32,000 nt of DNA from Candidatus Nanosynbacter lyticus (GTDB taxonomy: Bacteria; Patescibacteriota; Saccharimonadia; Saccharimonadales; Saccharimonadaceae). Positions within the stretch are counted from its first letter, which is position 1. Each line of letters starts with the position of its first letter. The notes beneath the pieces are model-generated. The model had not been told where the DNA came from and ran no database searches. It worked only from the letters and a program-made list of their open reading frames with translations. The stretch covers positions 690,001 through 722,000 of the forward strand of contig NZ_CP124549.1 of assembly GCF_030253515.1 (NCBI RefSeq), in the 5' to 3' direction. Below are positions 3,118 to 31,350 of this stretch, one piece after another. Made by a program: the position numbers and the translations under genes.

Positions 3118-3209
3118 GACCCTTCTACACTGACCTTTCTTTAGCCCAGTCTGTATTTAGTATAGTTGTGATTTGACATACTATATATTATTGTTATATT
3201 TAAGTTACT

Positions 3210-9581: not shown

Positions 9582-9633
9582 ATGAGTATTATACCAGATT
9601 ATTGACTAAGCTTCCGGGAGCAGCTGCGACTTC

Positions 9634-10515
9634 TTATCTATGTACCATATCCATCGCCCGAATATGCGGCGGACGATGCGCTAGCTGAGGATGGCGGCGA
9701 GACGGCACAGCGATGTGAGCGCGGGAATGAGCAGTGACTTGCGGGTGGGTCAGCTCCTTTGGCTGCGGCGGTAATTTTGGCTGGGTTGGCAGTTGGTGCG
9801 GCTGGGATAGTGGGCGCTTGACAGTCGATTGCGTGTCGGTGCGTGGTGCATTAGCACGAGGTGCGGCCGCTGCAGGATTGAGCGGGCGAGTCGGGCTCGA
9901 AGGCTGAGATGAAAACGGTGGCTTCGTCAGCGGCGGGTGCGGCGGATGTGATGAGAGCGGCTTGACTGGCTGAGCCTTGACGGAAGAAAGTTTGTTGAGC
10001 GGGCGCTTGGCCGGGGCCGGCGCCGAAGCAGTGGGCTTGATCAGTGAAGCGCGTGATGGTGAGAGGGCGTACTTCGGCGGCTGGGGCTTGACGGACAGCT
10101 TGGTAAATGATGCACTTCGCGAGCGCTGGACACCACGCGGCGGCATAATGTCATGAAAGACTGCTGGTTTTTTAGGGTGAGGTTTAGCCGGTGGATTGAG
10201 AGCGGGAGTCTTTTGAGGAGCGGTAGAACGCGAGCGAGGTAAATGAGTAGAAGGTTGCGGCGGTACAACGCGAGACGCAGCCGAAGGACGAGCTGGCTGC
10301 GCGGCTACAGTTTGCCGCTGAATACTATGACGCCGAGCCGGAGCGGAGTGAGGAGAACGTGGCGCGGGTGATGTGGGAGATGCGGCGGGTACTGAAGTAG
10401 CCACCGGGCGCTGACGCGACACTGATGCTTCCGCGTCAACATCTGACACCTCGCCCTTACGACGGTTACCGAGCCGAGCTTTCTTGAATAGCTTCATCAA
10501 CTTCATCAGCGCCAC
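9634..10515 (-). CDS. Proline/serine/alanine-rich basic low-complexity protein (293 aa)
   Basis: Long ORF co-oriented with its neighbours. Strongly biased composition (P, S, A, R, K) with no globular motif. The short N-terminal MKLMKLFKKARL segment is the only non-repetitive part. Confidence 0.5.
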   Translation of the reverse strand: MALMKLMKLFKKARLGNRRKGEVSDVDAEASVSRQRPVATSVPAASPTSPAPRSPHSAPARRHSIQRQTVAAQPARPSAASRVVPPQPSTHLPRSRSTAPQKTPALNPPAKPHPKKPAVFHDIMPPRGVQRSRSASFTKLSVKPQPPKYALSPSRASLIKPTASAPAPAKRPLNKLSSVKAQPVKPLSSHPPHPPLTKPPFSSQPSSPTRPLNPAAAAPRANAPRTDTQSTVKRPLSQPHQLPTQPKLPPQPKELTHPQVTAHSRAHIAVPSRRHPQLAHRPPHIRAMDMVHR

Positions 10516-10649
10516 CCCATCCCCTGGGAGATGTCGATACCGAAAATGATTACGGTCAGCTGGTCGATATGACTCTCCTTCCTCTGATTGATTCTGTCAC
10601 CATTATACTGGTTATGCTCAGTGATTTCAAGCAGCCAACCGCTCAGCCA

Positions 10650-11117
10650 CTAGAGCAACTCATCCAGCACCGATTGCCAGTCCGGAAACTGCGGAGTACC
10701 GAAATGGATGTGCCGGCCAACAAACTCAGCGGCACCCCTGGCCGTCCGATCATCGATCAAGATATCACCGCGGCTCAGCTGTTTGACTGACGAAAAGATA
10801 ACTTTGCGAAAGAAAATATTTTCCTGACCATCACCGCCAAAATACTTCTTCACCCACGCTAGTTTATCACCCAACGCCGTCGGATTTTCCCATGGCGATG
10901 ACGAGAGGATGTATAGATCATACTTTTCCTTCAGCTTATCAACCGCCTCGAGGGCGCCTGGCATCGGATCCATCAATGCAAAAACACCCGGAATATTGTC
11001 ATATTCACCCGCAAATTTCTCAAGCATCTCAGACGGAACCTTCGTCAAGGCCGATGTAAAGTCCACCAGCACGCCGTCCATATCGAGATAGATAATTGGT
11101 TTCTTATTTTCGTTCAT
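10650..11117 (-). CDS. 5'(3')-deoxyribonucleotidase, NT5C/HAD family
   Basis: IIYLDMDGVLVDF (DxDxV HAD motif I), SSSPW, and a C-terminal ILIDDR...FGT pattern typical of NT5C-type nucleotidases. Start placed at MNENKKP (11117), which overlaps the upstream ORF by 14 nt. Confidence 0.7.
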   Translation of the reverse strand: MNENKKPIIYLDMDGVLVDFTSALTKVPSEMLEKFAGEYDNIPGVFALMDPMPGALEAVDKLKEKYDLYILSSSPWENPTALGDKLAWVKKYFGGDGQENIFFRKVIFSSVKQLSRGDILIDDRTARGAAEFVGRHIHFGTPQFPDWQSVLDELL

Positions 11118-11631
11118 CTTTACCTCTGCCAGTGAAAGATGAAAAATCACGATATGCTATATTTTTCTTCTTCGGTGCATAGCCTTTTCTGCGATGAACA
11201 AAACCATTCTGGCGAGCACGCTTTAAAGCTTCAAGTGTTGGAAACATGACCACTTCGCTCCATTCGTTTGGCAATTGACGCTGTAGAACGGCAAATTTAG
11301 GATTAATGTCTCTCACTACTACAGCCAGGATGGTCTTCATGCCTAAACAGCTCGCCAATGTTGTCCGATGCATCCCATCAACAAGCAGTAGGCCCTCATG
11401 CTCATATTCTTCAACGATAGGCGGAAGCATCACTCCACCCCCTTTTTTCTCATCTATGATGATTCCCCCTTTCTCCATCCGCAGTGTGTCTTCACCGGCT
11501 TCAAGAGTTACTCTACGCAACCACCATTGATTCTCTACCCCCGATCCGATTGCGTAATATTGGGTTGGTCTGAGACCACTAATTTTAACTTCCTCAACTG
11601 AAATATTGCTTATCAGCATAAGGGCGCTCAT
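11104..11631 (-). CDS. ParB/Srx-fold (ParB-like nuclease domain) protein
   Basis: ISGLRPTQ near the N-terminus and LLLVDGMHRT (a DGxHR-type motif) are characteristic of the ParB/sulfiredoxin fold. The start is uncertain: TTG at 11670, or ATG at 11631 or 11619. Confidence 0.5.
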   Translation of the reverse strand: MSALMLISNISVEEVKISGLRPTQYYAIGSGVENQWWLRRVTLEAGEDTLRMEKGGIIIDEKKGGGVMLPPIVEEYEHEGLLLVDGMHRTTLASCLGMKTILAVVVRDINPKFAVLQRQLPNEWSEVVMFPTLEALKRARQNGFVHRRKGYAPKKKNIAYRDFSSFTGRGKDERK

Positions 11632-11706
11632 TCTTATCAGCCAACGTCGAAGCCTGATGCAGGTTATCAATTAGCCATTCTTGCGACTTAAATCCTTTTA
11701 CCCTCA

Positions 11707-12669
11707 CTATTCTCTCCTCAACATTATTGTAAACGCCTCACTCGGAATATCAACCTTGCCAAAGCGCTTCATGCGTTTTTTGCCGCGAGCCTGTTTGGCG
11801 AGGAGCTTCTTTTTGCGGCTGACATCACCGCCATACAAATAGCCGGTGACGTCTTTGCGGTAGGCGCCGATGTTTTCGCGGGCAATGAACCTGCCACCAA
11901 TTGCCGCCTGCAGTGCCACCTCAAAGCTCTGGCGCGGTACCACGTCTTTGAGTTTTTTGACGATCTCACGGCCCAAGCCTGGCGCCTCCGAACGATGGCA
12001 CATCACGCTCAGCGCATCAACCATCTCACCCGCTACATAAAAATCCACCCGCACCAGGTCTTCCGGCTGGTAGCCCGCCAGCTCATAATTAAACGAACCG
12101 TAGCCGCTAGTTACCGACTTCAATTGATCATAAAAATCCGTCAGCAGATTTGCCAGCGGCGCCGTAAAAGAAATCAGCGCCCGCTCATCGATATAGCTGA
12201 GATTTTTCTGCCGGCCGCGCTTGGCGACAATCAGCTGAATCACTGCACCAATGTAATCCTGCGGCACCACAATTTCGCCGTCAATCCACGGCTCGCGAAT
12301 TTCTTTGATCTGCGCTGGGTCGGGTAGTTCACTAGCTGATTTGATATCCAGCTCCTCGCCATTAGTCAGGCTAACTTGATAATCCGTACTCGGATTGGTG
12401 ACGATGAGATCCAGATTATACTCACGCTCCAGCCGCTCGCGAATAATGTCCATATGAAGCAATCCCAAAAAACCAATCCGCACACCATAGCCTAGCACTG
12501 GCGAATTTTCCGGCTCAAACTGCAGTGCCGAATCGCTGAGACTTAGTTTTTCAATAGCCTCTTTCAGGTCATTATAATCTTCATTGCTCACCGGAAAGAA
12601 GCCCGCGTAGACGAAGGGCTTGACTTCTTTGTAGCCAGGCAACGGTTGGACGGTAATTTTTTCAGTCAT
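11707..12669 (-). CDS. lepA: Translation elongation factor 4 (LepA), C-terminal half (domains III, V and CTD), separated from its N-terminal half
   Basis: Begins MTEKITVQPLPGYKEVKPFVYAGFFPVSNEDY. Continues through GFLGLLHMDIIRERLEREYNLDL to GGDVSRKKKLLAKQARGKKRMKRFGKVDIPSEAFTIML. This is colinear with the second half of E. coli LepA. It may be a pseudogene fragment or an independently expressed half. Confidence 0.9.
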   Translation of the reverse strand: MTEKITVQPLPGYKEVKPFVYAGFFPVSNEDYNDLKEAIEKLSLSDSALQFEPENSPVLGYGVRIGFLGLLHMDIIRERLEREYNLDLIVTNPSTDYQVSLTNGEELDIKSASELPDPAQIKEIREPWIDGEIVVPQDYIGAVIQLIVAKRGRQKNLSYIDERALISFTAPLANLLTDFYDQLKSVTSGYGSFNYELAGYQPEDLVRVDFYVAGEMVDALSVMCHRSEAPGLGREIVKKLKDVVPRQSFEVALQAAIGGRFIARENIGAYRKDVTGYLYGGDVSRKKKLLAKQARGKKRMKRFGKVDIPSEAFTIMLRRE

Positions 12670-12680
12670 AACTGCCTACC

Positions 12681-12715
12681 ATTATATCAGTTGAGCGTTT
12701 AGCTGCTCAACTGAT
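12681..12715 (-). promoter_or_regulatory. Hairpin plus candidate promoter at the junction of island A and the lepA C-terminal half
   Basis: Perfect 11-bp inverted repeat ATCAGTTGAGC (12686-12696) / GCTCAACTGAT (12705-12715) with an 8-nt loop, directly after the stop of the 534-aa ORF. On the minus strand TTGAGC (12705-12710), an 18-nt spacer and TGaTATAAT (12681-12689) sit 11 nt from the lepA C-half ATG. Confidence 0.4.
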
Positions 12716-12719
12716 CGCA

Positions 12720-14324
12720 TCAACGGACTGGTCCATGTGGAGGCCTGATTATTCCTGCCCGTATAGCTCTAACATATTCGCCCAAGCTACCTGGCATACC
12801 GTGCCAAAATTCATCGTCATGTCGCTTCGACAAGACATCTGCCAAACGCTCGTCCTGATAGTGTTCAATTTGCTCGTATAGCTCACACAGTCGCCAGATG
12901 ATAAGCTGGTCGCTGTAGCTTGTTAAGCCTACATGTTTTAGGTTGTTAAACTGACCAACTAGCTGACGCATAATCTTAATGTTAGTATCTTCTGTAGACA
13001 GCAAGTCGCTCACGAACTCATTTATATCAAACTCTCCTAGCGGCGGTTTAACTAGGCTTATAAACTCAATAAATCCTGGTAGACACTTCTTCGCCCTCGC
13101 CTCTTCCGCCAACTTACTAAAATCTGCTTCGACACCCCAGTACAATTCTTCTTTCTCCATAGAATCACCGGCAACCAGCCTACCATCTCCAAACATATCA
13201 TCAAACTCACCGCCCATCTCCTTGACTAAAGGCTCCGCAAAACGCTTATATTCACGGAATAGTTCGACACCCTTCCCGTCTTTTATCAAACCATTGATGA
13301 CATCCATGCAGCTACTATCAGCACCATATCCGTAGAGGTTACGATAAATATCTAGTCGATCTATGCCATAATGCTTTTGATAGCGTTTGTCTCGTGTAAA
13401 GAATACACCCCTATCATAGAAAAATGCTTTAAGCTTCTCCGCCTGATCAATATAGCGATCAAGAATCAGTTCACCTAGTTTGTCGATAGCCAAACCCCTT
13501 TGATCGACTATAGTTTTCACGTCTTCCACAAAATTACGCTCACCCCGCACAGATTGCAGAGTGGCGATACCACCGTTTTTCCAAAAATAGCTTTCGCCAA
13601 CACTACTATCAGCCCCAAACCACAGCATCATGATGTCCCTCAGAGACAGATCCTCCCCCTTTTGCTGCTTGGCACAAATCTCGTCAATATTTTCGATTGT
13701 ATGTATGGTCTCCAATTTATCCTGACCCTTAGATAATTCACCGATTCTCTCATGCAGTACACCTGTCATACATGGCTCAACTCGACAGTCATCGCCGTCA
13801 ATCCCCAAAATCATTTTTATATCACCACCTTCACCCAGACACATCATGATACGAGGAATATTGTATCTACCGGTTGTGAATACAAGCATCTTAGTGATAT
13901 TTCTATGGCCAAAGGAGTCGTAACTTGATAGTGCAACCTTATACAAAAAGTCATAAATGGAGTCTGAGCCACCGGGGAACCAGCCGGTACATTGACCCTC
14001 AAGTAACGCCTGCACCTCCTCGGCTGTACCTTTTTGGGGCGTGGAAGAATCCTTATACTTACAAATTATTTCATACCACTTCCCTTGAGTCTCTCGACGT
14101 CGCTCTTGCCCTAGGCCTGTTCGGATCGCTACTTCCCTGCCATACAGCTCACCAAACTTAGCTGCCTCCAGTTCATCGGGACTATATTCCCGCAAAATTT
14201 CATATACCGCCTCAAGCGCCGCAGGATTTACCTCTGGCAAAAGTCTCTTGCTGCCAATTTCGCGAACATCAAATGTTTTGGTCTGCGGATTAAACCCTCC
14301 TAGTTCTGGACAAGCATCGATCAC
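12720..14324 (-). CDS. Hypothetical protein (534 aa), orphan; in frame with the upstream 258-aa ORF
   Basis: Long ORF with no motif I recognise. The only available start is GTG, with no SD. It shares a reading frame with ORF 14358-15134, separated by one TAG plus 11 sense codons. Confidence 0.55.
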   Translation of the reverse strand: MIDACPELGGFNPQTKTFDVREIGSKRLLPEVNPAALEAVYEILREYSPDELEAAKFGELYGREVAIRTGLGQERRRETQGKWYEIICKYKDSSTPQKGTAEEVQALLEGQCTGWFPGGSDSIYDFLYKVALSSYDSFGHRNITKMLVFTTGRYNIPRIMMCLGEGGDIKMILGIDGDDCRVEPCMTGVLHERIGELSKGQDKLETIHTIENIDEICAKQQKGEDLSLRDIMMLWFGADSSVGESYFWKNGGIATLQSVRGERNFVEDVKTIVDQRGLAIDKLGELILDRYIDQAEKLKAFFYDRGVFFTRDKRYQKHYGIDRLDIYRNLYGYGADSSCMDVINGLIKDGKGVELFREYKRFAEPLVKEMGGEFDDMFGDGRLVAGDSMEKEELYWGVEADFSKLAEEARAKKCLPGFIEFISLVKPPLGEFDINEFVSDLLSTEDTNIKIMRQLVGQFNNLKHVGLTSYSDQLIIWRLCELYEQIEHYQDERLADVLSKRHDDEFWHGMPGSLGEYVRAIRAGIIRPPHGPVR

Positions 14325-14357
14325 ATAGGACGAAAACCAGTCAGGATATCTGCCGGC

Positions 14358-15134
14358 CTACAGTGCTGCTTTCCATTCACCTAGACGCCCAAGCTGTGCA
14401 GCGCAAAAGTTATCGACCCGCCTAGTCCGCCCATCATGATGACTGTACCAAGCTCCATCGAGACCGAATCGTTCACTCCAACGAGGTGATGAAGATGATG
14501 ACTGACATAACTCTTCTTCACTAGGCAAACTGTTGACGATCTTACTTTCGGCCACCGGTATCGACATAATATATGAACGATACGGATATCTGTCCGGACC
14601 AGTATACCAGTTAGGTTTGGTGGTACTTTGCTGAGGCGGCAGTGGCGATTCTTCCTCCTCTGAGTCTGTTGTTTTACCTAGGATATACCGAGTTAGCAAC
14701 CTCAGCTTATATGTATCGTCAGCCGGATTTTTTGAACCGTATACATCCCCCAGGCGGCTATACCTCTTGACTAGTATCTCCAGGTTGCCATCCCGCCATT
14801 CACTACCTAGCCTAGTAAAGATATCACTTGCGAGTAGTTGCTCCAACTCCTCTGGAGTAGCATGCTCAGTCATGACGTCAAAAACTGCAAATATTCTGTC
14901 ACTTCGTTCCTGAGACTTCCAGCCCTCCTTTGGATCTTCGTACTCATTCAAAGATATACGGAGAGCTTCCGCCATTTGTCCGGCTACATCGAACGCGTCG
15001 GGTGCTTCTTCTCGAAGTTTCGCTACAACCTGACCCATCTTGTCAGCGGAAATATAGTCTTTGCGAAGCTCACCTTCTAGGGTCGGATCAAGAGTGGGTC
15101 TGTCAGGTGTCTCCCGATATTTATCAATCATCAT
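14358..15134 (-). CDS. Hypothetical protein (258 aa), orphan
   Basis: The ORF has an acidic segment (TDSEEEESP). The 46-nt intergenic region upstream consists of TTGACA (15166-15171), a 17-nt spacer, TAAAAT (15143-15148), 8 nt, then the ATG. Confidence 0.55.
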   Translation of the reverse strand: MMIDKYRETPDRPTLDPTLEGELRKDYISADKMGQVVAKLREEAPDAFDVAGQMAEALRISLNEYEDPKEGWKSQERSDRIFAVFDVMTEHATPEELEQLLASDIFTRLGSEWRDGNLEILVKRYSRLGDVYGSKNPADDTYKLRLLTRYILGKTTDSEEEESPLPPQQSTTKPNWYTGPDRYPYRSYIMSIPVAESKIVNSLPSEEELCQSSSSSPRWSERFGLDGAWYSHHDGRTRRVDNFCAAQLGRLGEWKAAL

Positions 15135-15180
15135 TGACTGGCATTTTACTACTTTCTTAATTATTTGTCAATATACTATG

Positions 15181-16884
15181 TCAGCGGGCCGCACCCTGGC
15201 GAATTTTCTTAAGCGTCTCAGCAATCTTCGCCTGTTGCTCGGGGCTGTAAAAGTAACCTATTGAGCTATTCACACCATTCGCCCTTCTGCCACGACATGC
15301 CAGTGGTTCCCCGAAGTCAGGATCAACCTCATTCAAAACCTTAATCGCCTTCTGAAACGCTGGTGATCCACAGTGCAAAGCGTTCATAAGGTCTGACGTT
15401 GCTAGATAGCCTTCGGGAGCTGGGCGCATATAGCCTCTTTTCAAGAAATAGTCACTTATAGCCTCTACTTGCTCCCGCGAAAGGCCTTCACAAATTTTTA
15501 CCCGACCCTTTTGACAAGAAAACCTATAGATTGAAGGTTGCAAGCCCAATGAGTGCATGGCATTTTTAATTGTCTTTCGACACACCCCAAAGCGCTTCAT
15601 TGCTGCACTTACCATAATACATCCCTCCGGGGGTGGAGGCGCAAACAATCCCCTGTCATGTGCTTTTTCTATGATCACCGCTTGCTGCTCTGGACTAAAA
15701 AACTCACGAACCTGAGGAGAACGATGCCATGAACCCTCGGACAGGATACCGTCTTCTTTAAGACTCCTCGCTATCTTTGCTATCGTCATATCACTTACAC
15801 CCAGAACATTGGCGAGAGCTTTGAGCGTCAGATACCCTTCTGGTGGCGGTAGATTAAACATACCTTTTTGCTTAAGTACTTCTTCTATCAATTCGGCCTG
15901 CTCTCTAGTAAAAACTGGTTTCTGCTTACCACACCAATCCCGCTTGGCTACCTCCCCCAAGCAGCCATCCCGCTCCAACCGGGTGGCAATGGTCGCAATG
16001 ACACGATACTTCACACCGAGCTTATCTGCTAGCCCATTGATCGTCAGGCCCCCCATTGCCTCAATCATTCGACGAGGGCTCAAATAATTACCTTGACGTT
16101 GCCTACCCATCTCAACTGGTTGCCGCAGATCATCTGCTAATGCCCCCACTAAGTGTGGAACAAAGTAATCATCACAACGCACCATCGCACCACAGCCCGG
16201 ATACTGTGCCATCACCTCCATAAGCTGTGTTTTCGTATATGCAGTCAGCTTTGCACGCTCTTCTTCTGGCAGCCGCGTTGTATCAAATACAAAGGTACCG
16301 TTGCCGTAGGCGTCACAAATCAGTACCGTCCGCTCGAGTGGTGGGATAGTTACCTCATGGTATGGCTCCTGGCGCATCATCACTGTCCCCACTTCCCCAC
16401 GACGAATCTGTAATGCTTCGCCGCTCGGCTCAATACCAAATTCATTTGCCAATATGAACAGCAGTATTTTCAGCCGTGGTTGGCGAGTAATCCACTCACG
16501 GTGGGGCGTCTCGGACATACCGGCGTCAGGTCCGGACCTATCATCGGGTGGCACAAAGACATTGCCAGTCGATTCAATCTGGCCAATAGCCGTATCAATA
16601 GCCATGAGCTGCTCCGCTTTGTCGGCAATATGGTCGAGCAGCCCGCCGATTTCCTCCACACCGTAGTAAGCAAACGCCGCATTCTCACTTTCAGCAGAAC
16701 TGTCTAGCCAAATCGTCAGCTGGTGCTTGTATGCCTGCACCATCTCATCAACCAGCTGGATCAATTTATCCAAGGCATCCTCAGCGTAGGTATCGACATT
16801 TTCAACCGTCAACGGTTGATTAATAATTTCCTCTACGCTGCTTGCAAAGTCCTTGCCATGATCAATACTACCGAGTCGCTCCAT
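15181..16884 (-). CDS. Hypothetical protein (567 aa) with four tandem HTH-like C-terminal modules
   Basis: The N-terminal 268 aa have no known motif. The C-terminal 300 aa are four repeats, with PEG(Y/C)(L/I) at residues 350, 421 and 492, an exact 71-aa period. Each has the form LAxxLGVSxxTIxKxxxxL ... (F/Y)SPEQQAxIxE. The ATG at 16884 is preferred over the track TTG at 16890. Confidence 0.6.
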   Translation of the reverse strand: MERLGSIDHGKDFASSVEEIINQPLTVENVDTYAEDALDKLIQLVDEMVQAYKHQLTIWLDSSAESENAAFAYYGVEEIGGLLDHIADKAEQLMAIDTAIGQIESTGNVFVPPDDRSGPDAGMSETPHREWITRQPRLKILLFILANEFGIEPSGEALQIRRGEVGTVMMRQEPYHEVTIPPLERTVLICDAYGNGTFVFDTTRLPEEERAKLTAYTKTQLMEVMAQYPGCGAMVRCDDYFVPHLVGALADDLRQPVEMGRQRQGNYLSPRRMIEAMGGLTINGLADKLGVKYRVIATIATRLERDGCLGEVAKRDWCGKQKPVFTREQAELIEEVLKQKGMFNLPPPEGYLTLKALANVLGVSDMTIAKIARSLKEDGILSEGSWHRSPQVREFFSPEQQAVIIEKAHDRGLFAPPPPEGCIMVSAAMKRFGVCRKTIKNAMHSLGLQPSIYRFSCQKGRVKICEGLSREQVEAISDYFLKRGYMRPAPEGYLATSDLMNALHCGSPAFQKAIKVLNEVDPDFGEPLACRGRRANGVNSSIGYFYSPEQQAKIAETLKKIRQGAAR

Positions 16885-16891
16885 GTGCAAT

Positions 16892-16920
16892 ATTATAGCA
16901 TTTTATACTATTATTGTAAA
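16892..16920 (-). promoter_or_regulatory. Near-consensus sigma70-type promoter for the 567-aa island ORF
   Basis: Minus strand: TTTACA (16915-16920), a 17-nt spacer, TGcTATAAT (16892-16900), then 7 nt to the ATG at 16884. This implies a leaderless or nearly leaderless mRNA. Confidence 0.55.
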
Positions 16921-17062
16921 TGATGAGCTCTTCCTCTCAATTACAACTAATCGCCTTAATCCGGTCACATATTCTTTACTAAACCCCATAACAACACACT
17001 GATGTCTTTATCAAATTGAAAATTTAGTTCTCATTGGTGGATTATCGGGTCAGTGAGGGCAC

Positions 17063-18052
17063 TCAATCCTCTATAATAACGTCCTCAACAGGTCGACGTT
17101 TGGAATAGGCCTGCTGCTTGCCATAGCCAATGCGCAGCAAAATAGTTGGATATTCCCCATCAAGATCAAGAGTTTTTGCCATTTCTGCGGCAATTTCTGG
17201 CTGCTCGTTCGGCTGATTTAGATAGGCATGAGCGATCCCAAGCTCCGTGGCAGTCAGCAAGAAACGCTGCAGCGTCCGACCCAAGTTCACCCATTCGCGC
17301 CGACTATTTTCTCTTGTCGTAAAAAGAACCAGATGAGAAGCCGATGCTATCTTTTCGCGATCAGCCTTATTCTGCGTCTTAGCATTGATAGCCATCGCCA
17401 TGATTGGCTCAGCCATCCAGCGCGGCACATTAGGCGCACCAAACACGGCATAGCTCAGCCCATCAAGTGTTTGATCTTGATGTTTTTTGTTAAATCGCAT
17501 CCAGCTTTTCAATTCAGCCTTAAACGCCTCATTTTGCATTTGATGCGTATTCCCCCGAAGAACGTATTGTTCAATATCATTAAACTGTTTAGTTTGACGC
17601 GCATAGTAATGAACCGACACTCCATCTTCACCGCGAATCGCCTGCAGTCTCTTTAGCGCATCTAGCGCGATTTCCTCGCCAGTATAAATACTACGATTGG
17701 TCTGCCGTAAATCTATCTGCTCAAACAGTGGACTGGACTTGACGTCCGCTCCTTCCGTGAGTGTAACTGCGATATCTCCCGTATCACCAACCGAAACGGT
17801 AGATTTATAGCCCTTAGTTTGCGCTGCCAAGCAGAGGTTCTCAGCCGCACAGCCCAGACTCACGAATAGCTCCCTGTTGTCAGGGTCGACTACTGGTAGC
17901 TTCCTGTCAAAATCAGGATGAATTTCCACCACTGACCCGTCGCGACGGAATTTCCAAGGCTGAATATTGTGCCCTGACGGTGCTTTGACTGCCTGCTTAA
18001 CTAGAAACTTAAAATCGTCTAATGATATAATGTTTCCTGTTTTCTTCGTCAT
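17063..18052 (-). CDS. Nitroreductase-family protein (Acg-like, two-lobed FMN-binding oxidoreductase)
   Basis: The N-terminal AVKAPSGHNIQPWKF motif is typical of nitroreductases. The 329-aa length fits the tandem-domain Acg-type subgroup. Promoter TTGACA (18116-18121), 16-nt spacer, TATACT (18094-18099) lies upstream. Confidence 0.65.
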   Translation of the reverse strand: MTKKTGNIISLDDFKFLVKQAVKAPSGHNIQPWKFRRDGSVVEIHPDFDRKLPVVDPDNRELFVSLGCAAENLCLAAQTKGYKSTVSVGDTGDIAVTLTEGADVKSSPLFEQIDLRQTNRSIYTGEEIALDALKRLQAIRGEDGVSVHYYARQTKQFNDIEQYVLRGNTHQMQNEAFKAELKSWMRFNKKHQDQTLDGLSYAVFGAPNVPRWMAEPIMAMAINAKTQNKADREKIASASHLVLFTTRENSRREWVNLGRTLQRFLLTATELGIAHAYLNQPNEQPEIAAEMAKTLDLDGEYPTILLRIGYGKQQAYSKRRPVEDVIIED

Positions 18053-18372
18053 AATCTTCTCAAATACCCTCTCATATTGTTACTGTTGAACCCAGTATAC
18101 TTACCAAAAAAATGGTGTCAAATAAAAGCCCCTATGACCAAGATACTCTCTACTATCCGCACTGCCAAGGCTCAGCGCTTTGAAAACCTTATCAGCACCG
18201 GGGGAAACAAAAACCCCCCGTCCGAAGCTAGCAACGACGAGGGGAGAAAAGCCAAGGATCACCGCCGTATACCGGTTCATCTTTGTCCTGGCTATCTTAC
18301 ACCGGCCCCGTGACCTGTATATTCTGCTATAGTTTGCTGGATTTGCGTGTGTCGTACTTGACTTCACCATTG

Positions 18373-18435
18373 TCATCCAAAAGACAGCACAATAGCCATC
18401 ACGATACCTACCATAAATAATCCTGCCTTTTTCAT
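18373..18435 (-). CDS. Candidate 20-aa hydrophobic peptide (MKKAGLFMVGIVMAIVLSFG)
   Basis: Translated by hand. TATAAT (18452-18457, minus strand) and the SD agaaagaaggg lie upstream of the ATG at 18435. It sits in a 536-bp stretch with no other convincing gene. A 20-codon ORF can arise by chance. Confidence 0.25.
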   Translation of the reverse strand: MKKAGLFMVGIVMAIVLSFG

Positions 18436-18588
18436 ATCCCTTCTTTCTGATATTATACGACAGCACCGACTACACAAAAATAAGCTATTATTGTCAAGCA
18501 AAGCTTAGTTGGCCGCAAGCTTTACAACTCTCTTTCAGCGATCAGGCCACGCCATAGCTTACATTATCACGGTTCACCGACAAATTAC

Positions 18589-19497
18589 TTATGAGAGCGC
18601 CAGCTCGCCAATATGCCTCCAAAACTGACGCAGATCCTTAACGTCTACGCCTTCAATATCGTAGTTTGAAAGCACACCATGCCACGTGCTGGGCACAGCG
18701 CTCTTATCTAGTAGACGGTACTTGCTGAACACAAAACCATGCGGTAGCCATGCCATGCTTATGACATCATCGTTGGCACATGGATATTCCAATATAGGAA
18801 AAGAGCAATCATATGTATCAACAATATTTCCTGGATCAATTGCTCCATAATGCTTCCACTCCCCATAGCAAAAATCAAAACCTAGTGGCAGAAGAGCCAT
18901 TTCGACACCCTCTCCCCCCTTATCTCTAGATGTCCGCATCTCCTCTACAAATGAATCCAGCGCTTGACGAGCAAGAATATCGAGCCAATCCGCCCCAAAC
19001 ATCATCGAGTCGAAATACTCGTCAATTTTTCTACAATCTTCTTTACTGAGGTTATTTGGGTCGGTTTTGGCAGTAGGCACCGTATCGTTTAAGTCACGAG
19101 GCGTGACGAGCATGGTGTCGATTGTTTTTAGCCGTGGATCTATAAATACCATTTTTGCGCCATAGTAACAGGCATTGCTCGGATAAAGGCTCGAAAATAC
19201 GAACTGGTCAAGACCAAAGTGGCAATCAAGCCTGTATGTATTAGTTCTACGGCCTGATAACTGACTGCTCGACAGTATCCCCATCTCCATGAACCGCCCA
19301 GGGAAATCACCTGAGTTAGTATAGTGCAAAAGTGGCAATCGCTCAAGACGTGCTCGTATCTCCCGAACAGCTAACTGCTCACCCTCTGATAAATCTCTCT
19401 GACTCTCCGGATGGTTATGAAAATTATCGCGCAATCGACCGGCATCAACATATTGCGCCATTCTTTCTGGTAGAACAAGCGCCTCGCTAGATGACAC
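18589..19497 (-). CDS. Hypothetical protein (302 aa), orphan
   Basis: GTG start with a gaaggat SD. Promoter TTGACA (19592-19597), 17-nt spacer, CATAAT (19569-19574) lies upstream. No motif I can name with confidence. Confidence 0.55.
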   Translation of the reverse strand: MSSSEALVLPERMAQYVDAGRLRDNFHNHPESQRDLSEGEQLAVREIRARLERLPLLHYTNSGDFPGRFMEMGILSSSQLSGRRTNTYRLDCHFGLDQFVFSSLYPSNACYYGAKMVFIDPRLKTIDTMLVTPRDLNDTVPTAKTDPNNLSKEDCRKIDEYFDSMMFGADWLDILARQALDSFVEEMRTSRDKGGEGVEMALLPLGFDFCYGEWKHYGAIDPGNIVDTYDCSFPILEYPCANDDVISMAWLPHGFVFSKYRLLDKSAVPSTWHGVLSNYDIEGVDVKDLRQFWRHIGELALS

Positions 19498-19699
19498 GCC
19501 GCCAATCCTTCTGGATCTTAAAACTGAGAAAGCCCATACAAAAACCTGCTAGCATCATAGTAAACTTAATTATGGTATAGCACTTACTTTTTGTCAAATG
19601 GGCCACCTGACCACATTGACCAAACTTTATCCCAGCCCTTTTCGCAACACGTATCCGCGGGGTGCTTTTGCAATTCAGTTAGGCCAATTGTTTGTGGAT

Positions 19700-20347
19700 T
19701 CATGGCTTACTCCTTATCACTAATTTACTCAACTGCCACACCACCATCACAATAGACCAGCCAAACAATACCACCTCCGACACCACCGTCAGCGGTACCG
19801 AGACTTCACCTGCATAGTATGTACCGACCATCTTTAGAAATGCAACACACACGCTCGTTAATATAACTATCCAAGATTTCGTAATGATCCCTGCCGCAGT
19901 AACAAATGCAGCCAACGCCAGTGCCATCCAGTGCAGTCCTGCGAACAGTTGACTCGCAGATAATACACTTATTTCTGGAGTAATCGGCAATCCATTCACC
20001 GGATAAACGAGGCGTCCGAGCGCCATCATCGCATGAAATGCACCAATTGCCACAACGATACCTAGAGCAAGCACGATACCCATGCCAACAGGATATCGCC
20101 CCCTCAGTTTAGAGTACAAAACCACGACGACAGCTAACAATATCGACGCTCCACATGCTAGCATTTCACCTGCCGCCTGCAAGACGACCTGATGTTGCTG
20201 CACCCACGCTAGCACACCTGGAGCGTTTGCTGAGGGTATCGGCAGTGACACTGCGATACTAATGCAAGCCGTGGCAAGCAAACCAAAGCTCATCAGCCAT
20301 ATAATATTACCGATATACGAAATATGCCGACTACTTTGTTTTACCAC
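19700..20347 (-). CDS. Polytopic membrane protein (215 aa), unknown function
   Basis: About 6-7 hydrophobic helices. GTG start preceded by an AAGGAG SD that lies in the tail of the chimeric lepA-derived small ORF. Confidence 0.55.
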   Translation of the reverse strand: MVKQSSRHISYIGNIIWLMSFGLLATACISIAVSLPIPSANAPGVLAWVQQHQVVLQAAGEMLACGASILLAVVVVLYSKLRGRYPVGMGIVLALGIVVAIGAFHAMMALGRLVYPVNGLPITPEISVLSASQLFAGLHWMALALAAFVTAAGIITKSWIVILTSVCVAFLKMVGTYYAGEVSVPLTVVSEVVLFGWSIVMVVWQLSKLVIRSKP

Positions 20348-20351
20348 CCTC

Positions 20352-20492
20352 TCACTCCTTCGTCATATATTTCTTTAGCGTCACCGTATCGCCCACCCGC
20401 GCTTCACGGGTGGTTTTTAGGTTGGTGACGATGTAGCCGGGTAGCGGTGTTTCCTTTCCGGAATATTCAGTCACCCCAATTGCTCCATACAT
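20352..20492 (-). CDS. Chimeric 46-aa ORF: 18 novel residues fused in frame to the duplicated lepA segment
   Basis: [46 protein letters not shown]. The underlying promoter is TTGTCA (20522-20527), a 17-nt spacer, TACTAT (20499-20504), then 6 nt to the ATG at 20492. Probably a by-product of the rearrangement rather than a gene. Confidence 0.3.
   Translation of the reverse strand: MYGAIGVTEYSGKETPLPGYIVTNLKTTREARVGDTVTLKKYMTKE
20370..20438. repeat. 69-bp direct repeat of the lepA domain II end, internal copy
   Basis: 66 of 69 nt are identical to 21235-21303. In the lepA frame it encodes [23 protein letters not shown]. All 3 differences are synonymous Leu codon changes. Confidence 0.9.
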
Positions 20493-20539
20493 AATGCTAT
20501 AGTATTTTATTTTATAAATAATGACAACTCACTCTTAAC

Positions 20540-21220
20540 TCACTGCGCCTTCGGCAAAAAACCGCGCGCTACGAGCGCCCGCCAAGCCGTGTCCGCCGAG
20601 GTGGATGGTGGCTGCGGCGTTGAAAATCCCTTATCGGGATAGCTCTTTATTCGCTCATAATCGCCTAGCATCAACGTCAACATCATGGCGGCACTGCCAT
20701 AGGTTACCTCATATAACTGATAATATGCCTCTACTGTTGTCGGCTGACTAGTCACATACAGTCGCGGCCGCGGGTGCGGCCACTGAGCCTCGGCGGTTGC
20801 CAAAAATCGACGCGTCATATACGGTTTATGGATTAAAATGATATCCTCAGCCTGAATCGCCGCCCCCGCCAGCAACTGAGCCGAACGAGTGATATTTTCG
20901 CCGGTATTAGCGGCTTGGTGTTCAAACAGGATTGCCGATTTCGGCACCGCCAAACGTTGGAGTCGTCGCCCCAGCAGTGTCGCTTCGGTTTCTGTCGCCC
21001 CATGATAGGGATTAGCAAATCCCGACACCACAATCCATGAGCTAATGCCCGCATGATATAACTCGGCCGCTCGCTCGGCACTATCGATCATAGCTCCCGC
21101 ACCGCCGATCACGATAGCATCCGCCCGCGCCGGCAGCCGACTCTCAACGCAAAGATACTCCCACAATACCTGGAGGTGATGCCAGTCTTGATCGGTGAGG
21201 GTTAGCTGGCTACGCGGCAT
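20540..21220 (-). CDS. DUF218 / YdcF-family protein
   Basis: AIVIGGAG...WIVVSG...EATLLGRRL...[19 protein letters not shown]...[12 protein letters not shown] follows the DUF218 (YdcF/SanA-like) pattern. The ATG lies 14 nt past the end of the repeated lepA segment and overlaps the out-of-frame tail of the lepA N-half ORF. Confidence 0.65.
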
Positions 21221-22191
21221 GTATACGCTCTTGGTTTCTTCAACGTCACCGTATCGCCCACCCGCGCTTCACGGGTGGTTTTCAGGTTGGTGACGATGTA
21301 GCCAATTTCGCCAGTGTCCAGCGACGGGTCGGGGATCATACCGGGACTGAGATGGCCAACCTCCAATGCCAACCCATTCGCACTGGTCGCCATCATATGA
21401 ATCGCTTCACCCTTTTTGATCTGACCATCCACCAGCCGCACGTACAAAATCACGCCGCGATAATCATCATAATAACTATCAAAAATTAGCGCCCGAGTTG
21501 GGAGATCAGCCAACGCAACATCAGGATGCTCGACCGCCAGTGGCGAAGTCGGCGCCGGGATTCGCTCAACGATCGCCGCCAAAACTTGATCGACATTCTG
21601 CCCGGTTTTGGCGGAAATATGAATAATCTCGCTTTCATCGCAGCCCAGCAGATTAATCACCTGCTTGGACACCCGTGGCACATCGGCAGCCGGCAAATCA
21701 ACTTTGTTCAGCGCTGGGATAATTATCAAATCCTGCTCCATCGCCAAGTACACATTCGCCAGCGTCTGCGCCTGAATACCCTGGCTAGCGTCAACCACCA
21801 ATACCGCCCCTTCGCAGGCCTGCAAACTACGCGACACCTCATAGCTAAAATCGACATGGCCAGGTGTGTCGATGAGGTTAAGGTCGTAAGACCCAGCTAG
21901 TGGCAATCCTTCCGATGAATCGATAGCCCTGTCGCTGGCGTTGCCTGCGACATTCGATTGAGAGGAAGTGATTGCCGCTGGCTGGCGGTAGTGATACTTC
22001 ATCCGCACCGGCGCGAGCTTAATCGTAATCCCCTTCTCACGTTCCAAATCCATACTATCCAGCAGCTGCGACTTCATCTCGCGCTTCTCCACCGTCCCCG
22101 TCATCTCCATCATCCTATCCGCCAGCGTCGACTTGCCGTGGTCGATGTGGGCAATGATGCAAAAATTACGAATACTGGTCAGCGGTTTCAT
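21202..22191 (-). CDS. lepA: Translation elongation factor 4 (LepA), N-terminal half (G domain plus domain II), truncated
   Basis: [34 protein letters not shown] and SAKTG are the G motifs. Domain II ends in [10 protein letters not shown]. An extra segment of about 26 aa ([33 protein letters not shown]) precedes DTPGH relative to E. coli LepA. The start overlaps the murJ stop (TGATG). Confidence 0.9.
21235..21303. repeat. 69-bp direct repeat, copy contiguous with the lepA N-terminal half
   Basis: Partner of 20370-20438. It forms the last authentic lepA codons (…[23 protein letters not shown]) before 12 unrelated codons and a stop. Confidence 0.9.
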
Positions 22192-23852
22192 CAGCGCCTC
22201 AACTTACTCATATCAAATCGCGAAAACAGCAGACGTTTCATTCGCGCCAAGACCGGGTCGATCTCTGGCAACTTTAGCCACTTGGACAGCGCGCCATACA
22301 CGACAAAATTGAAAATCGTAATCGCCCCAAACTTGGGCAGCGCCCCCAAAAAGCTATCGTCTGAGGCCCGGAACGGAATTACTAACACGCTGACGTAGCA
22401 CGCCACTGCTAGTGGCACCGCGGCTAACGCCATCTTGGCGACCGCTTTGACAAACGTCGCGTCAAACAGCTGTGGCATGCGCCGACCTAAAATGACGCAC
22501 AAAATCACCACCTCAACAAAGGCGACAATTGACTGCGCCCATGCCAGGCCATACGGGCCAAGCTTCGCATAGTAGCCAAGTATCACGGCCAGCGCCACAT
22601 TCAACACAATCGCAAAAATCGACACATACATCGGTGTCTTGGTATCCTGCTGTGCATAAAATCCGCGCGCCACCATGTGATACACCGTCCTGAATAAAAT
22701 TGCCATTACCAGACAACCGAGAATGTTCGCCATAACCGGATCGCCGTTATTATTGATAAAGTGCACCACGTAGCCACGCGCGAAAAACGTCACCACACAA
22801 ATCGGGATAATCATCCAAATCACCGTCCTGAGGAATGACCGCAGATCTCTACGAAATAGATCCGGACGCTCCGAGGCGAGGCGTTCAGTTAGCTGCGGAA
22901 AGGCAGCGTTGGAAATAGCAACGCCGATGAGGTTGATCGGCATCATGTGTAGTGTCAATGCTTGATTATAACGACGAATAATACCATCACCCATCCGCGA
23001 CGCCAAGTTAACTTCGGCTAGGCTGACCACATAATCCATTCCCTGATCAATCGAGCGCGCCGGCAGCAGCGACAAAACTTTACGAAAGCCGCGATTGCGC
23101 CAATAAATCTTGAAATCATAATCAAAACCGAGTCCGATTAGCCCGACCGCACTGACGATGAGCTGCAGCACCGATCCGAGCACCACGCCAAGCGCCACGC
23201 CCATAATGCCGCCGTCAAAAATTTGCCAGCCGAACAGGTTGATGCCGTTGGTGAACCACAACGTACCGATGATAATCCCGACATTGTACAGCATCGGCGC
23301 CAGCGCATAGAAGGTGAAGCGACCGACCGCTTGCTGGATGCTAGCAATCACCGCTGCCACCGCAAAGATCAGCGGATTTACCGCGATCACTCGCATCATA
23401 CTGACCGCCAATGCGTGACCAGCCTCGCTTAGCCCCGGCGCGATCAGATATTTCATCAGCGGATCAGCAAAAATGATGATTAGAACGCTCGTCACCAGCG
23501 TCACCAGCGCCATGAGATTGATCATGCTCGAACTAATTTGCCAGGCTGATTGCTTGTTGCCCTTGATCCAGCGCTCGTTAAATACCGGTATGAAGGTAAC
23601 GCTCAGCGCCCCCGACACCAAAATCGCAAACATGAAATCCGGCACCATGAACGCCGCCGTATAGGCGTCCAGCCCGACTGGATAGCCAGCCAAGTGAGCC
23701 TTCTCGTTGGGAAAATACGCCGCATTCAAAAAGCGATCGCGCAGCAGCCCCAGCAAGCTTGACAGCAACATCGAGCTCGCTAAAATCGTGGCGGCTAACT
23801 TGACTGTCAGCCGCTGATTGATCTTGTTGACAACATTACGAACGCGCCCCAT
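22191..23852 (-). CDS. murJ: Lipid II flippase MurJ (MviN family)
   Basis: 553 aa with about 14 TM helices. The N-terminal [14 protein letters not shown]... and [24 protein letters not shown] are typical of MurJ. Confidence 0.85.
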
Positions 23853-27760: not shown

Positions 27761-27837
27761 TGGTAGCACCGGGTGGACCCGAACCACCGACCTCAGGCTT
27801 ATGAGTCCTGCGCTCTAACCAGCTGAGCTACGGTGCC
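27761..27837 (-). tRNA. tRNA with CAT anticodon (elongator Met or lysidine-modified Ile2; not distinguishable by eye), CCA encoded
   Basis: The reverse complement GGCACCGTAGCTCAGCTGGTTAGAGCGCAGGACTCATAAGCCTGAGGTCGGTGGTTCGGGTCCACCCGGTGCTACCA folds as a cloverleaf with D stem GCTC/GAGC, T stem GGTGG/CCACC and anticodon loop CTCATAA. TGgTACAAT (27849-27857) lies just upstream. Confidence 0.85.
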
Positions 27838-27954
27838 ACACGTCACCAATTGTACCAAACGAGGCGCAAAATCTCAACCGCCTCGAGAACCTACTCATCA
27901 GGCGGGGCCTCAACTGCTCATCAAATAAGGCCAGGCAAGTTTCGCCCCCGGCGA

Positions 27955-31273: not shown

Positions 31274-31350
31274 TGGTTGCGGGGGTAGGATTTGAACCTA
31301 CGACCTTTTGGTTATGAGCCAAACGAGCTACCAGGCTGCTCTACCCCGCG
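31274..31350 (-). tRNA. Initiator tRNA-fMet (CAT), CCA encoded
   Basis: The reverse complement CGCGGGGTAGAGCAGCCTGGTAGCTCGTTTGGCTCATAACCAAAAGGTCGTAGGTTCAAATCCTACCCCCGCAACCA is almost colinear with E. coli tRNA-fMet. It keeps the C1xA72 mismatch diagnostic of bacterial initiators. Confidence 0.9.

Follow-up and report, generated by a model that had tools for sequence, protein, structure and literature searches.

The lepA gene of Candidatus Nanosynbacter lyticus lies in two parts about 8.5 kb apart, which raises the question of whether the locus records the recent destruction of a gene by inserted DNA or a lasting division of EF4 into two polypeptides. We approached this question in a 32,000-nt stretch of the genome (the window; positions 690,001–722,000 of the forward strand of NZ_CP124549.1, assembly GCF_030253515.1), whose own numbering is used below, and in related genomes.

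The break in lepA

The gene order tilS-ftsH-murJ-lepA, proposed in an initial annotation of the window, was borne out; gene ends are close or overlapping, and the start of lepA-N overlaps the murJ stop. As the same annotation had stated, lepA is represented by two open reading frames (ORFs), each with a start and a stop of its own:

21202–22191 (−): lepA-N, EF4 G domain and domain II, 329 aa (ORF, Pfam, and TIGR01393)
11707–12669 (−): lepA-C, EF4 domains III and V and the LepA C-terminal domain, 320 aa (ORF, Pfam, and TIGR01393)

The N-half matches GTP_EFTU (PF00009; E = 1.4e-53) and GTP_EFTU_D2 (PF03144; E = 4.4e-8) and aligns to residues 5–280 of Aquifex LepA. It contains GTPase motifs G1–G5 followed by domain II, and its G motifs, including SAK, are invariant in 27 relatives; a variable insertion is present in the G domain. 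The C terminus reads ...VGDTVTLKK, followed by 10 unrelated residues and a stop. The C-half, which begins with its own ATG (MTEKITVQPLPGYK...), matches EFG_III (PF14492), EFG_C (PF00679; 4e-21), and LepA_C (PF06421; 2.6e-42), and from its third residue onward aligns to residues 284–601 of T. thermophilus EF4. On the TIGR01393 profile, the best stretch of the N-half ends at position 279, and the C-half spans positions 278–593 of 595. The break is clean: residues are neither lost nor duplicated, the halves jointly span the lepA profile, and between them they contain all five EF4 domains (G, II, III, V, and the LepA C-terminal domain). The split lies at the domain II/III linker.

Against the TIGR01393 equivalog cut-off of 533.9 bits, the N-half scored 393.3 and the C-half 434.6 bits, and only the sum passes. 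Because each half is below the cut-off, the gene is named only “GTP-binding protein.” lepA (TIGR01393) is a standard single-copy marker, and pipelines for completeness and phylogenomics may count a split copy as absent or fragmented.

The three junctions named in the initial annotation are real, and a 69-bp direct repeat is located at 21235–21303 and 20370–20438. Short k-mer assemblers could be confused by such a repeat, and an assembly chimera had been put forward as the result that would overturn the split. However, SPAdes and MEGAHIT assemblies of different samples recovered the identical arrangement, many MAGs without the 69-bp repeat are also split, and the split was seen in more than 30 independent assemblies as well as in two independent closed TM7x (Nanosynbacter lyticus) genomes, CP007496.1 and CP040011.1. 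A chimera or a mis-join at the repeat, contradicted by these assemblies and closed genomes, was therefore rejected as having virtually no chance of being correct.

Conservation, selection, and start signals

Both halves were found at 34 loci, strain duplicates included, which represent ~30 species-level Saccharibacteria genomes. The break point is the same in all of them, and in every split genome both halves are kept, adjacent and in the same order. In Southlakia epibionticum ML1, SEML1_0727 (918 bp) and SEML1_0725 (960 bp) flank SEML1_0726 (Table S1, PMC10633639). All 120 closest homologues of the N-half stand alone (294–367 aa), with no protein of ~600 aa among these 120. The same is true of 118 of the 120 closest C-half homologues (304–345 aa; one cluster of 3072 sequences), a list that includes one 476-aa partial lepA with N- and C-part domains (P0382, 89% identical). 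None of the species with a C-half at least 93% identical is intact. We found no published description of a lepA split in the literature. The gap between the halves varies 20-fold, from 409 bp, occupied by a single translationally coupled gene, to 8565 bp; compared with it, the neighboring junctions vary little (8–75 nt for ftsH-murJ and −27 to +8 nt for murJ-lepA-N).

These observations bear on the initial proposal that 8.56 kb had been inserted into lepA, which would imply an element targeting the gene. A recent mobile or integrative element that inactivated lepA and left the ORFs as decaying remnants would fit the lower G+C content of the genes between the halves (0.44–0.49 versus 0.52–0.56 in the flanks), the resemblance of the 69-bp repeat to an att site, and the dispensability of lepA in Tn-seq. 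However, the break is old: it is shared by ~30 species, including three closed genomes of cultured strains, with gaps of 409 bp to at least 8.5 kb. The dN/dS values of the halves are 0.07 and 0.02, the start codon and putative promoter are conserved, and the 69-bp repeat brackets an 865-bp DUF218 segment only, not the whole insert. No integrase, transposase, or recombinase was detected in the cargo of the window (Pfam, NCBIfam, and PADLOC) or among 40 cargo proteins of other loci (Pfam). No att-type direct repeats were found at the outer junctions, which have only TATGAC (6 bp) in common. The break was not made by a recent 8.5-kb insertion, a reading that conservation, selection, and the lack of mobility genes render extremely improbable.

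Both halves are under strong purifying selection. The median dN/dS in split taxa was 0.071 for the N-half (184 pairs) and 0.024 for the C-half (156 pairs); in intact taxa, it was 0.114 and 0.022 for the corresponding parts. This refutes the suggestion that the fragments are decayed remnants of a lepA duplicate. The gene table of S. epibionticum, the sole genome checked for a second intact lepA, has one “lepA” entry.

The two edges of the break have a recurrent form. N-halves that retain the native tail end in VT(L/M)xx(Y/F), most often VTLKKY, followed by a short variable stretch; across split loci, the N-tails comprise 2–19 residues and the C-heads only a few. Each C-half opens with a start codon of its own (Met; GTG in L022) directly before (I/V)xPLPGYK, the corresponding site in intact relatives reading VTV(K/R)R...PLPGYK. 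In the window, this start is preceded by the following element:

12681–12713 (−): promoter-like site directly upstream of lepA-C (TTGAGC, 18 nt, TG-n-TATAAT)

The end of the −10 box lies 11 nt from the lepA-C ATG, a 9-bp hairpin (12713–12705/12696–12688) overlaps the −35 box, and no Shine-Dalgarno sequence precedes lepA-C in the window. In 24 of 24 Nanosynbacter-type loci, L039 among them, TATAAT precedes the C-half start by 7–14 nt, although the upstream sequences are otherwise unrelated. At the remaining six loci, the C-half is reached by ATGA-type coupling; L035, L036, L045, L048, and L074 have ATGA-type overlaps at both sides of a single inserted gene. Judged by these motifs, the downstream half has independent translation signals and putative transcription signals. 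The C gene would then be expressed on its own: in the Nanosynbacter clade, from a private promoter expected to yield a leaderless or near-leaderless mRNA, and in deep-branching lineages, by coupling to the single inserted gene. The N gene would remain translationally coupled, as the final member of the tilS-ftsH-murJ operon.

The same edges allow two further explanations to be weighed. In an excisable element of the sigK-skin or nifD type, a recombinase would restore intact lepA in some cells or conditions. Such an element would account for the preserved order and strand of the halves, for TATGAC at both outer junctions, and for the fact that a hypothetical ...KKYMTEKITVQ... fusion is in frame. 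However, no island examined contains a recombinase gene, and N-tails and C-starts differ between species and are accompanied by stop, start, and promoter signals. A fused allele was found neither in metagenome contigs nor among the nearest homologues; in particular, a search for the empty-site allele (...VTLKKYMTEKITVQ...), which the initial annotation had recommended, gave 0 matches in metagenome contigs with a degenerate fused-junction pattern. We regard excision as very unlikely. A further possibility is that a single EF4 chain is re-created, through an intron, trans-splicing, a split intein, or ribosomal bypassing; colinearity of the halves is all that speaks for it. The genes in the inserts look expressed and have predicted promoters of their own, and insert length varies 20-fold. 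In a permissive search of 11000–23000, no group I/II intron or other Rfam family was significant, the sole matches being two unrelated sRNA families far below gathering scores. Pfam revealed no Hint domain at the break, and since the N-tails and C-heads are so short, there is no room for an intein. The probability of a re-created chain is negligible.

The gene island between the halves

The eight ORFs initially reported between the halves are indeed present, but they correspond to seven same-strand genes, one of which is broken by a nonsense codon. Features of this region include:

21235–21303 (−): 69-bp direct repeat copy 1, the functional 3′ end of lepA-N (repeat search and comparison with L004)
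20540–21220 (−): DUF218 gene, 226 aa, first cargo gene (Pfam PF02698, E = 9.7e-18)
20352–20438 (−): 69-bp repeat copy 2 (20370–20438) and relic tail (comparison with L004 and L014)
19700–20347 (−): 215-aa multi-pass membrane protein, no family match (Pfam)
18589–19497 (−): 302-aa protein, no family assigned (consensus-like predicted promoter at 19597–19569)
17063–18052 (−): Acg-family FMN-binding nitroreductase, 329 aa (NF047509; predicted promoter at 18121–18094)
15181–16890 (−): 569-aa protein with several winged-helix/HTH units (predicted promoter at 16920–16892 adjoining the start)
12720–15134 (−): homologue of an 804-aa protein, no family assigned (predicted promoter at 15171–15143)

The nitroreductase scored 316 bits with NF047509 (cut-off 199) and has a Pfam Nitroreductase match. 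In the window, the gene for the 804-aa homologue is interrupted by one nonsense substitution, which leaves ORFs of 258 and 534 aa. The 569-aa protein was considered as a transposase and rejected, its sole IS630 match being weak and confined to the HTH part. The membrane-protein gene is the first cargo gene in L004 and L007–9 and follows the DUF218 gene in L014.

Across 30 loci, the gap holds 38 families of at least 100 aa, and 110 of 114 genes are co-directional. The cargo of the clade includes the nucleotide-sanitizing enzymes NUDIX, MazG, and Ham1, as well as nitroreductase, Fic, and a Schlafen-type protein. Identical flanks, differing accessory content, and stable neighboring junctions are the features of a horizontal gene transfer (HGT) hotspot flanked by core genes. 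Compared with L008, the window has 4.6 kb more cargo. The 8.5 kb of the window is accreted cargo, the current state of the hotspot.

One such addition can be read from the comparison with L004, whose cargo differs from that of the window by a single 865-bp DUF218 insertion. The DUF218 gene is missing at this position in L004, and orthologues occupy the same position in L014 and L020 (93% identical) and in L036 (54% identical). The insertion has a 69-bp flank duplication and GCTAC microhomology, and the DUF218 gene starts inside the last codons of lepA-N. The two repeat copies share 96% identity, and their three differences all exchange synonymous Leu codons. Copy 2, together with a relic tail that reads tat atg acg aag gag tga (YMTKE and a stop), is the former lepA-N end, which is still in use in strain L004; the AAGGAG of the tail serves as the ribosome-binding site of the next gene. 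L014 has the same relic with a 53-bp internal deletion. The 69-bp repeat is the scar of a secondary 865-bp DUF218 insertion that duplicated the lepA-N end.

Possible traces of exchange are also seen in the two halves and within islands. In the comparison of the window with L004, the N-half has a dS of 0.56 and the C-half one of 0.005. Pieces of the C-half 5′ end survive as relics in the islands of L015, L021, and L032; these C-start scars are ~125 bp long, and the N-end scar is 69 bp. TM7x has been shown to be naturally competent and to insert cassettes by homologous recombination (PMC10633639). Gap genes may be gained, lost, and swapped by homologous recombination and one-sided-homology recombination in these competent bacteria, with the lepA halves serving as homology arms.

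The relationships of split and intact genes were assessed on single-protein neighbor-joining trees. Intact L042 is sister to split L048 with 100% bootstrap support for FtsH and MurJ and 91–96% for LepA-C, and intact L043 is grouped with split L045; the deeper conflict between N and C concerns weakly resolved trees. On this evidence, the split does not appear to be cleanly monophyletic. Given these groupings, a single vertical fission does not fit unless re-fusion, lateral spread, or tree error is allowed. We tentatively raise the possibility, which we think falls short of likely, that split lepA is a gene-exchange slot shared by Saccharibacteria, whose halves act as universal homology arms through which competent cells swap cargo across species and whose junction itself has spread laterally. 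As part of this joint reading, the junction would have entered lineages with an intact sister (L048 versus L042, L045 versus L043, and L074 versus L044). The junction may have originated when the C-half was partially duplicated downstream of cargo and its first copy was then lost.

A probable two-piece EF4 and its counterparts

The explanation that we consider probable is an old, stable fission of lepA giving a predicted two-piece EF4, with the gap turned into a recombination-driven accessory-gene hotspot. The fission at the domain II/III linker would be common to the Saccharibacteria clade that contains Nanosynbacter lyticus and Southlakia, and the two polypeptides would associate noncovalently, in solution or on the ribosome, to form a working EF4. 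The initial annotation had cautiously allowed for a two-piece EF4, and comparative sequence evidence favors this prediction. In S. epibionticum, Tn-seq classifies both halves as non-essential. From T0 to T2, their read counts fall in parallel (0.67 and 0.70) and those of the gene between them do not (1.37), a weak parallel that could be caused by polar effects. AlphaFold models of the halves were uninformative (pLDDT 37–40).

The halves might instead have become subfunctionalized, the N-half acting as a stand-alone GTPase and the C-half as an independent ribosome- or tRNA-binding factor. The putative C-half promoter of the Nanosynbacter clade would permit differing amounts of the halves, their recombination histories differ, and the N-half, with its variable G-domain insertion, evolves ~3 times faster than the C-half. 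However, intact lepA has a comparable or higher N-to-C rate ratio (0.114 versus 0.022), the canonical EF4 catalytic and ribosome-contact motifs are intact in both halves, the Tn-seq trends run in parallel, and adjacency and order are kept in every split genome. We consider subfunctionalization unlikely.

If a two-piece EF4 is correct, the G/II and III/V/C-terminal blocks are able to fold and function in trans. Since TM7x and Southlakia are cultured and naturally transformable and Tn-seq data are available, fusing, deleting, or tagging the halves is feasible. The locus also shows a reduced-genome epibiont concentrating accessory-gene turnover at one site.

Compared with canonical single-chain EF4 (E. 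coli 3CB4; T. thermophilus 5IMQ and 4W2E; Aquifex 2YWE), the halves have the same five domains, with G1–G5 and the conserved C-terminal YGGDxSRKKKLL motif intact; they are colinear with the profile and match solved chains with E values of 1e-90 and 1e-106. The difference is that two polypeptides are encoded here, by genes 0.4–8.6 kb apart, and that the C part has its own start and often its own putative promoter. We know of no EF-G-family translational GTPase that is naturally split, and none was found in the literature.

The Bacillus sigK skin element, the Anabaena nifD/fdxN elements, and the Listeria comK prophage are developmentally excised intervening elements. As in these, lepA is interrupted by kilobases of DNA with its parts on one strand; the locus differs in lacking a recombinase and end repeats, in having stop and start signals of its own and species-variable content, and in that no restored allele was found. 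Integron cassette arrays likewise present compact, co-oriented, unrelated genes at a fixed site downstream of an operon (here, 110 of 114 co-directional). Unlike integrons, the islands have no IntI or other integrase and no attC-like or recurring inverted-repeat element between genes, and many cargo genes have their own predicted promoters.

Genes split in reduced genomes offer a closer parallel. Nanoarchaeum equitans reportedly has a split reverse gyrase and a split alanyl-tRNA synthetase, and split Dph1/2 has been noted in DPANN (PMC6143161). As in those cases, a multi-domain protein of the essential type, in a small-genome symbiont, is cut at a domain boundary and both parts are kept and conserved; unlike them, the lepA halves remain in cis, in their original order and strand, and the gap is a variable gene island. 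The concept of chromosomal HGT hotspots flanked by conserved core genes, said to be that of Oliveira et al. 2017, describes the island itself. The constant flanks, differing accessory content, and absence of self-mobility genes are shared, and in both, homologous recombination in naturally transformable bacteria can account for the turnover. What sets this locus apart from such hotspots is that a single ancestral gene supplies both flanking core genes, as its two halves, and that fragments of these flanks are left as scars in the islands.

Two parts of lepA in the window and its relatives

The initial annotation had described lepA (EF4) as two pieces split at the linker between domains II and III, and this is borne out by the ORFs, domain matches, EF4 alignments, and profile positions.

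The two lepA genes of the window
21202–22191 (−): lepA-N, 329 aa; EF-Tu-type GTPase domain and domain II
11707–12669 (−): lepA-C, 320 aa; EFG_III, EFG_C, and LepA_C domains

lepA-N was aligned with Aquifex LepA over residues 5 to 280, after which ten unrelated residues and a stop codon follow; from its third residue on, lepA-C was aligned with residues 284 to 601 of T. thermophilus EF4. On the NCBIfam lepA equivalog profile (595 positions), the best N-half stretch ends at position 279, and the C-half covers positions 278 to 593. Since the halves meet at positions 279/278, the break lies exactly at the domain II/III linker, and nothing has been lost. Both parts are unmistakably EF4, with the G-motifs of the N-half and the C-terminal motifs of the C-half invariant among relatives; neither polypeptide by itself reaches the equivalog cut-off. 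AlphaFold2 predictions of each half alone, made from shallow alignments of close relatives (85 to 96% identity), had pLDDT values of 37 and 40 and are uninformative as to folding.

Exact-sequence look-ups placed the two lepA proteins of the window on numerous independent contigs from human oral metagenomes, produced by different assemblers. In TM7x, the cultured type strain of Nanosynbacter lyticus, both closed assemblies (CP007496.1 and CP040011.1) carry the split gene, in the order murJ, lepA-N (309 aa), a MazG-like ORF, a 156- to 160-aa ORF, lepA-C (320 aa), and gmk. Assembly error is excluded as the source of the split. The NCBI annotation of the exact N-half of the window reads "GTP-binding protein [Candidatus Nanosynbacter lyticus]."

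A C-half scan of one genome per species yielded 80 Saccharibacteria loci, in each of which both halves were then located. At one identical point, lepA is split in all species with a C-half at least 93% identical to that of the window, and also in seven more distant loci (L035, L036, L039, L045, L047, L048, and L074); Saccharimonas aalborgensis and ~45 others have an intact gene. Among database proteins, the 120 closest to the N-half all measure 294 to 367 aa, and 118 of the 120 closest to the C-half measure 304 to 345 aa, one cluster having 3072 members. The fused, empty-site allele proposed in the initial annotation was not encountered: a degenerate pattern for it had 0 matches in metagenome contigs. 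A second lepA was sought in one published gene table, that of Southlakia epibionticum ML1, whose lepA is split; it holds no other lepA entry (PMC10633639 Table S1). Both half-genes appear without comment in the tables of the Cell 2023 paper, and no description of a split lepA was found in the literature searched.

An exhaustive representative search with the C-half, aimed at a similar split in other phyla, returned short matches that were contig-end fragments, pieces of eukaryotic GUF1, or chimeras. One distant LepA C-part (P0210; 319 aa, 43% identity) begins with VTPFEPLPGYDEP..., precisely at the domain boundary of the split, and could be either a separate split that occurred in another lineage or a fragment from the end of a contig. 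Saccharibacteria-type tilS-ftsH-murJ-lepA contigs were also present in MAGs labeled Acidobacteriota and Nomurabacteria [L047 (JBLMYZ010000035.1), L074, and L079 (JAIRRY, JAITSF)], probably through mis-binning or mislabeling. The lepA-N of the window carries a low-complexity insertion of ~30 aa in the G domain (residues 68 to 99; 21895–21990, −), just before the DTPGH strand, which is absent from solved EF4 structures.

Selection and expression of the two halves

Median dN/dS (Nei-Gojobori, all informative pairs) in split taxa was 0.071 for N-halves and 0.024 for C-halves; for the same regions of intact lepA, it was 0.114 and 0.022, respectively. Selection on both halves is as strong as on the intact gene.

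Where the native tail survives, N-halves end with VT(L/M)xx(Y/F), mostly VTLKKY, followed by a short variable tail in which the next gene often has its ribosome-binding site (AAGGAG in YMTKE*). Every C-half begins with a start codon of its own (Met; GTG in L022), immediately ahead of (I/V)xPLPGYK; the corresponding stretch of intact relatives reads VTV(K/R)R...PLPGYK. Coupling of the C-half start to the upstream gene is seen in six deep lineages, those whose gaps are shortest (L035, L036, L045, L047, L048, and L074). Five of them, all except L047, contain a single inserted gene, whose ATG overlaps the lepA-N stop (ATGA) in L048, L036, and L074 and lies 9 to 16 nt downstream of it in L035 and L045. 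The C-half ATG overlaps the stop of the inserted gene in four of these five loci and follows it by 2 nt in L036.

In all 24 Nanosynbacter-group loci, L039 included, a TATAAT box is located 7 to 14 nt upstream of the C-half start, which lacks a Shine-Dalgarno sequence; farther upstream, the sequences of different sub-clades are unrelated. We infer that this region functions as a promoter of lepA-C.

Predicted promoter of lepA-C
12681–12710 (−): TTGAGC-18-TATAAT with an extended −10 TG

Given this geometry, a leaderless or near-leaderless lepA-C mRNA is predicted in the window.

lepA is dispensable in E. coli. Transposon sequencing of S. epibionticum called both halves non-essential; from T0 to T2, their normalized reads fell from 5009 to 3341 and from 2895 to 2020, and those of the gene between them rose from 2571 to 3535 (PMC10633639). 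The parallel fall fits one shared, dispensable function of both halves, with polar effects also possible. The halves presumably assemble and are active in trans.

Genes between the halves and their turnover

The gap between the halves spans 409 to 8565 bp across split loci. Neighboring junctions are fixed at 8 to 75 nt (ftsH-murJ) and −27 to +8 nt (murJ-lepA-N).

Genes in the gap of the window
20540–21220 (−): DUF218 protein, first cargo gene
19700–20347 (−): 215-aa membrane protein
18589–19497 (−): 302-aa protein of no known family
17063–18052 (−): Acg-family nitroreductase
15181–16890 (−): 569-aa multi-HTH protein
12720–15134 (−): 804-aa-type protein; one nonsense substitution divides its gene into ORFs of 258 and 534 aa

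The 804-aa gene is intact on contig L001/L005, with 2 substitutions in 2415 bp relative to the window, and its product has no family match in Pfam, NCBIfam, or PADLOC. No defence system known to PADLOC was detected in the window cargo. An assignment of the 569-aa protein as an IS630 transposase was rejected, since the match scored 24.9 bits (cut-off 100) and covered the HTH part only. Several cargo genes of the window have strong consensus-like promoters of their own.

Sigma-70-type promoters, near-consensus (11/12 matches), each just upstream of a cargo gene
15143–15171 (−)
16892–16920 (−)
18094–18121 (−)
19569–19597 (−)

Because two of these four lie 1 to 8 nt from the start codon, the sequence suggests that leaderless transcripts may be common in this genome.

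In 30 loci, the gaps contain 38 families of 100 aa or more, with 110 genes co-directional and 4 on the opposite strand. The families include three NUDIX families, MazG, Ham1, a DNA-alkylation-repair protein, GrpB, peptidase S51, SDR, DUF6994, Fic, EEP nuclease, T5orf172, a glycosyltransferase, a nucleotidyltransferase, and a PolyA-polymerase/Schlafen fusion. Nucleotide-sanitizing or salvage enzymes, such as Ham1/ITPase, are numerous in the cargo of L027 to L031, L039, L048, L074, and L092 to L094, with NT5C just downstream; they may reflect nucleotide scavenging by an epibiont. In locus L022 (7107–9959), one 950-aa protein fills the whole gap; it joins a CCA-adding/PolyA-polymerase head domain and a Schlafen AlbA_2 domain in one fusion, which may have a role in defense.

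The junction between lepA-C and gmk is also variable, in intact species too.

Second variable segment of the window
9582–11706 (−): lepA-C to gmk, three genes
11104–11670 (−): ParB-CE domain protein
10650–11150 (−): NT5C-type 5′(3′)-deoxyribonucleotidase
9634–10515 (−): 293-aa proline-rich protein; locally reversed GC skew, G+C 0.59

TM7x lacks all genes of this segment, and its gmk lies 85 nt after lepA-C. Two tRNA-Met (CAT) genes are present elsewhere in the window (27761–27837 and 31274–31350, both −); the first is inside a 79-nt stretch (27761–27839) that is 100% identical in the more distant loci L012 and L014.

The junction features listed in the initial annotation were present. A 69-bp direct repeat of the lepA-N end lies at 21235–21303 and 20370–20438. 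Compared to related locus L004, the window has one 865-bp insertion composed of the DUF218 gene with its AT-rich tail, plus the final 69 bp of lepA-N in a second copy; GCTAC microhomology is present at the novel joint. The repeat copies have three differences, all synonymous. After copy 2 (20370–20438) comes tat atg acg aag gag tga; this tail and the last codons of the copy (acg cta aag aaa) match the tail still used in L004, which lacks the DUF218 gene and whose N-half ends with KKYMTKE*. The same relic occurs in L014 with a 53-bp internal deletion, so the insertion is not recent. Larger differences were also seen: L008 lacks 4.6 kb present in the window, and L007 to L009 have only 3.1 kb between the halves. 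Mirroring the lepA-N relic, decayed copies of the first ~45 lepA-C codons (QPLPGYKEVKPFVYAGFFPVSNE...) lie inside the islands of L015 (8698–8820), L021 (7967–8092), and L032 (7987–8112), 1.2 to 2 kb upstream of the real C-half.

Between the window and L004, dS is 0.56 for the N-half and 0.005 for the C-half. Together with the scars, this contrast would mark both homologous recombination and recombination anchored by homology at a single side. Natural competence and cassette integration through homologous recombination are known from Saccharibacteria, TM7x among them (PMC10633639).

Origin of the split and comparison with known systems

Whether the split arose once was addressed with single-locus bootstrap neighbor-joining trees. 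Intact L042 is sister to split L048 with 100% support for FtsH+MurJ and 91 to 96% for LepA-C, but only 1 to 27% for LepA-N; split L045 and split L074 likewise group with an intact locus, L043 and L044, respectively. The C-half tree is in agreement with that of FtsH+MurJ. The taxa nearest to the outlying split taxa are mostly other split ones by the N-half and often intact ones by the C-half. The outlying taxa and the main split clade also have domain II residues in common (LYVR, GHL, PDP, and TLxK). This pattern fits a split that arose once, after which the junction spread laterally together with a few hundred bases of the N-half. The N-half tree, on which the conflict between the halves is based, is poorly resolved, and repeated fission, re-fusion, or convergence may have occurred instead.

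The scars and the variable junction downstream of intact lepA suggest how the split could have formed. A partial duplicate of the C-half would have formed on the far side of a piece of cargo, with the first copy lost afterwards; function would be kept throughout. TATGAC, or "YMT(K)E versus MTEK," was considered as a target-site duplication of the original fission but is too short and too old to judge.

No integrase, transposase, or intein was found in the cargo searched, no attC-like repeats between the cargo genes of the window, and no intron or other relevant RNA in a permissive Rfam scan. The arrangement fails the tests for an excisable element, integron, intein, or intron. In its workings, it resembles a classical functional gene fission, of the kind seen in the split genes of Nanoarchaeum, together with a horizontal gene transfer hotspot flanked by core genes.
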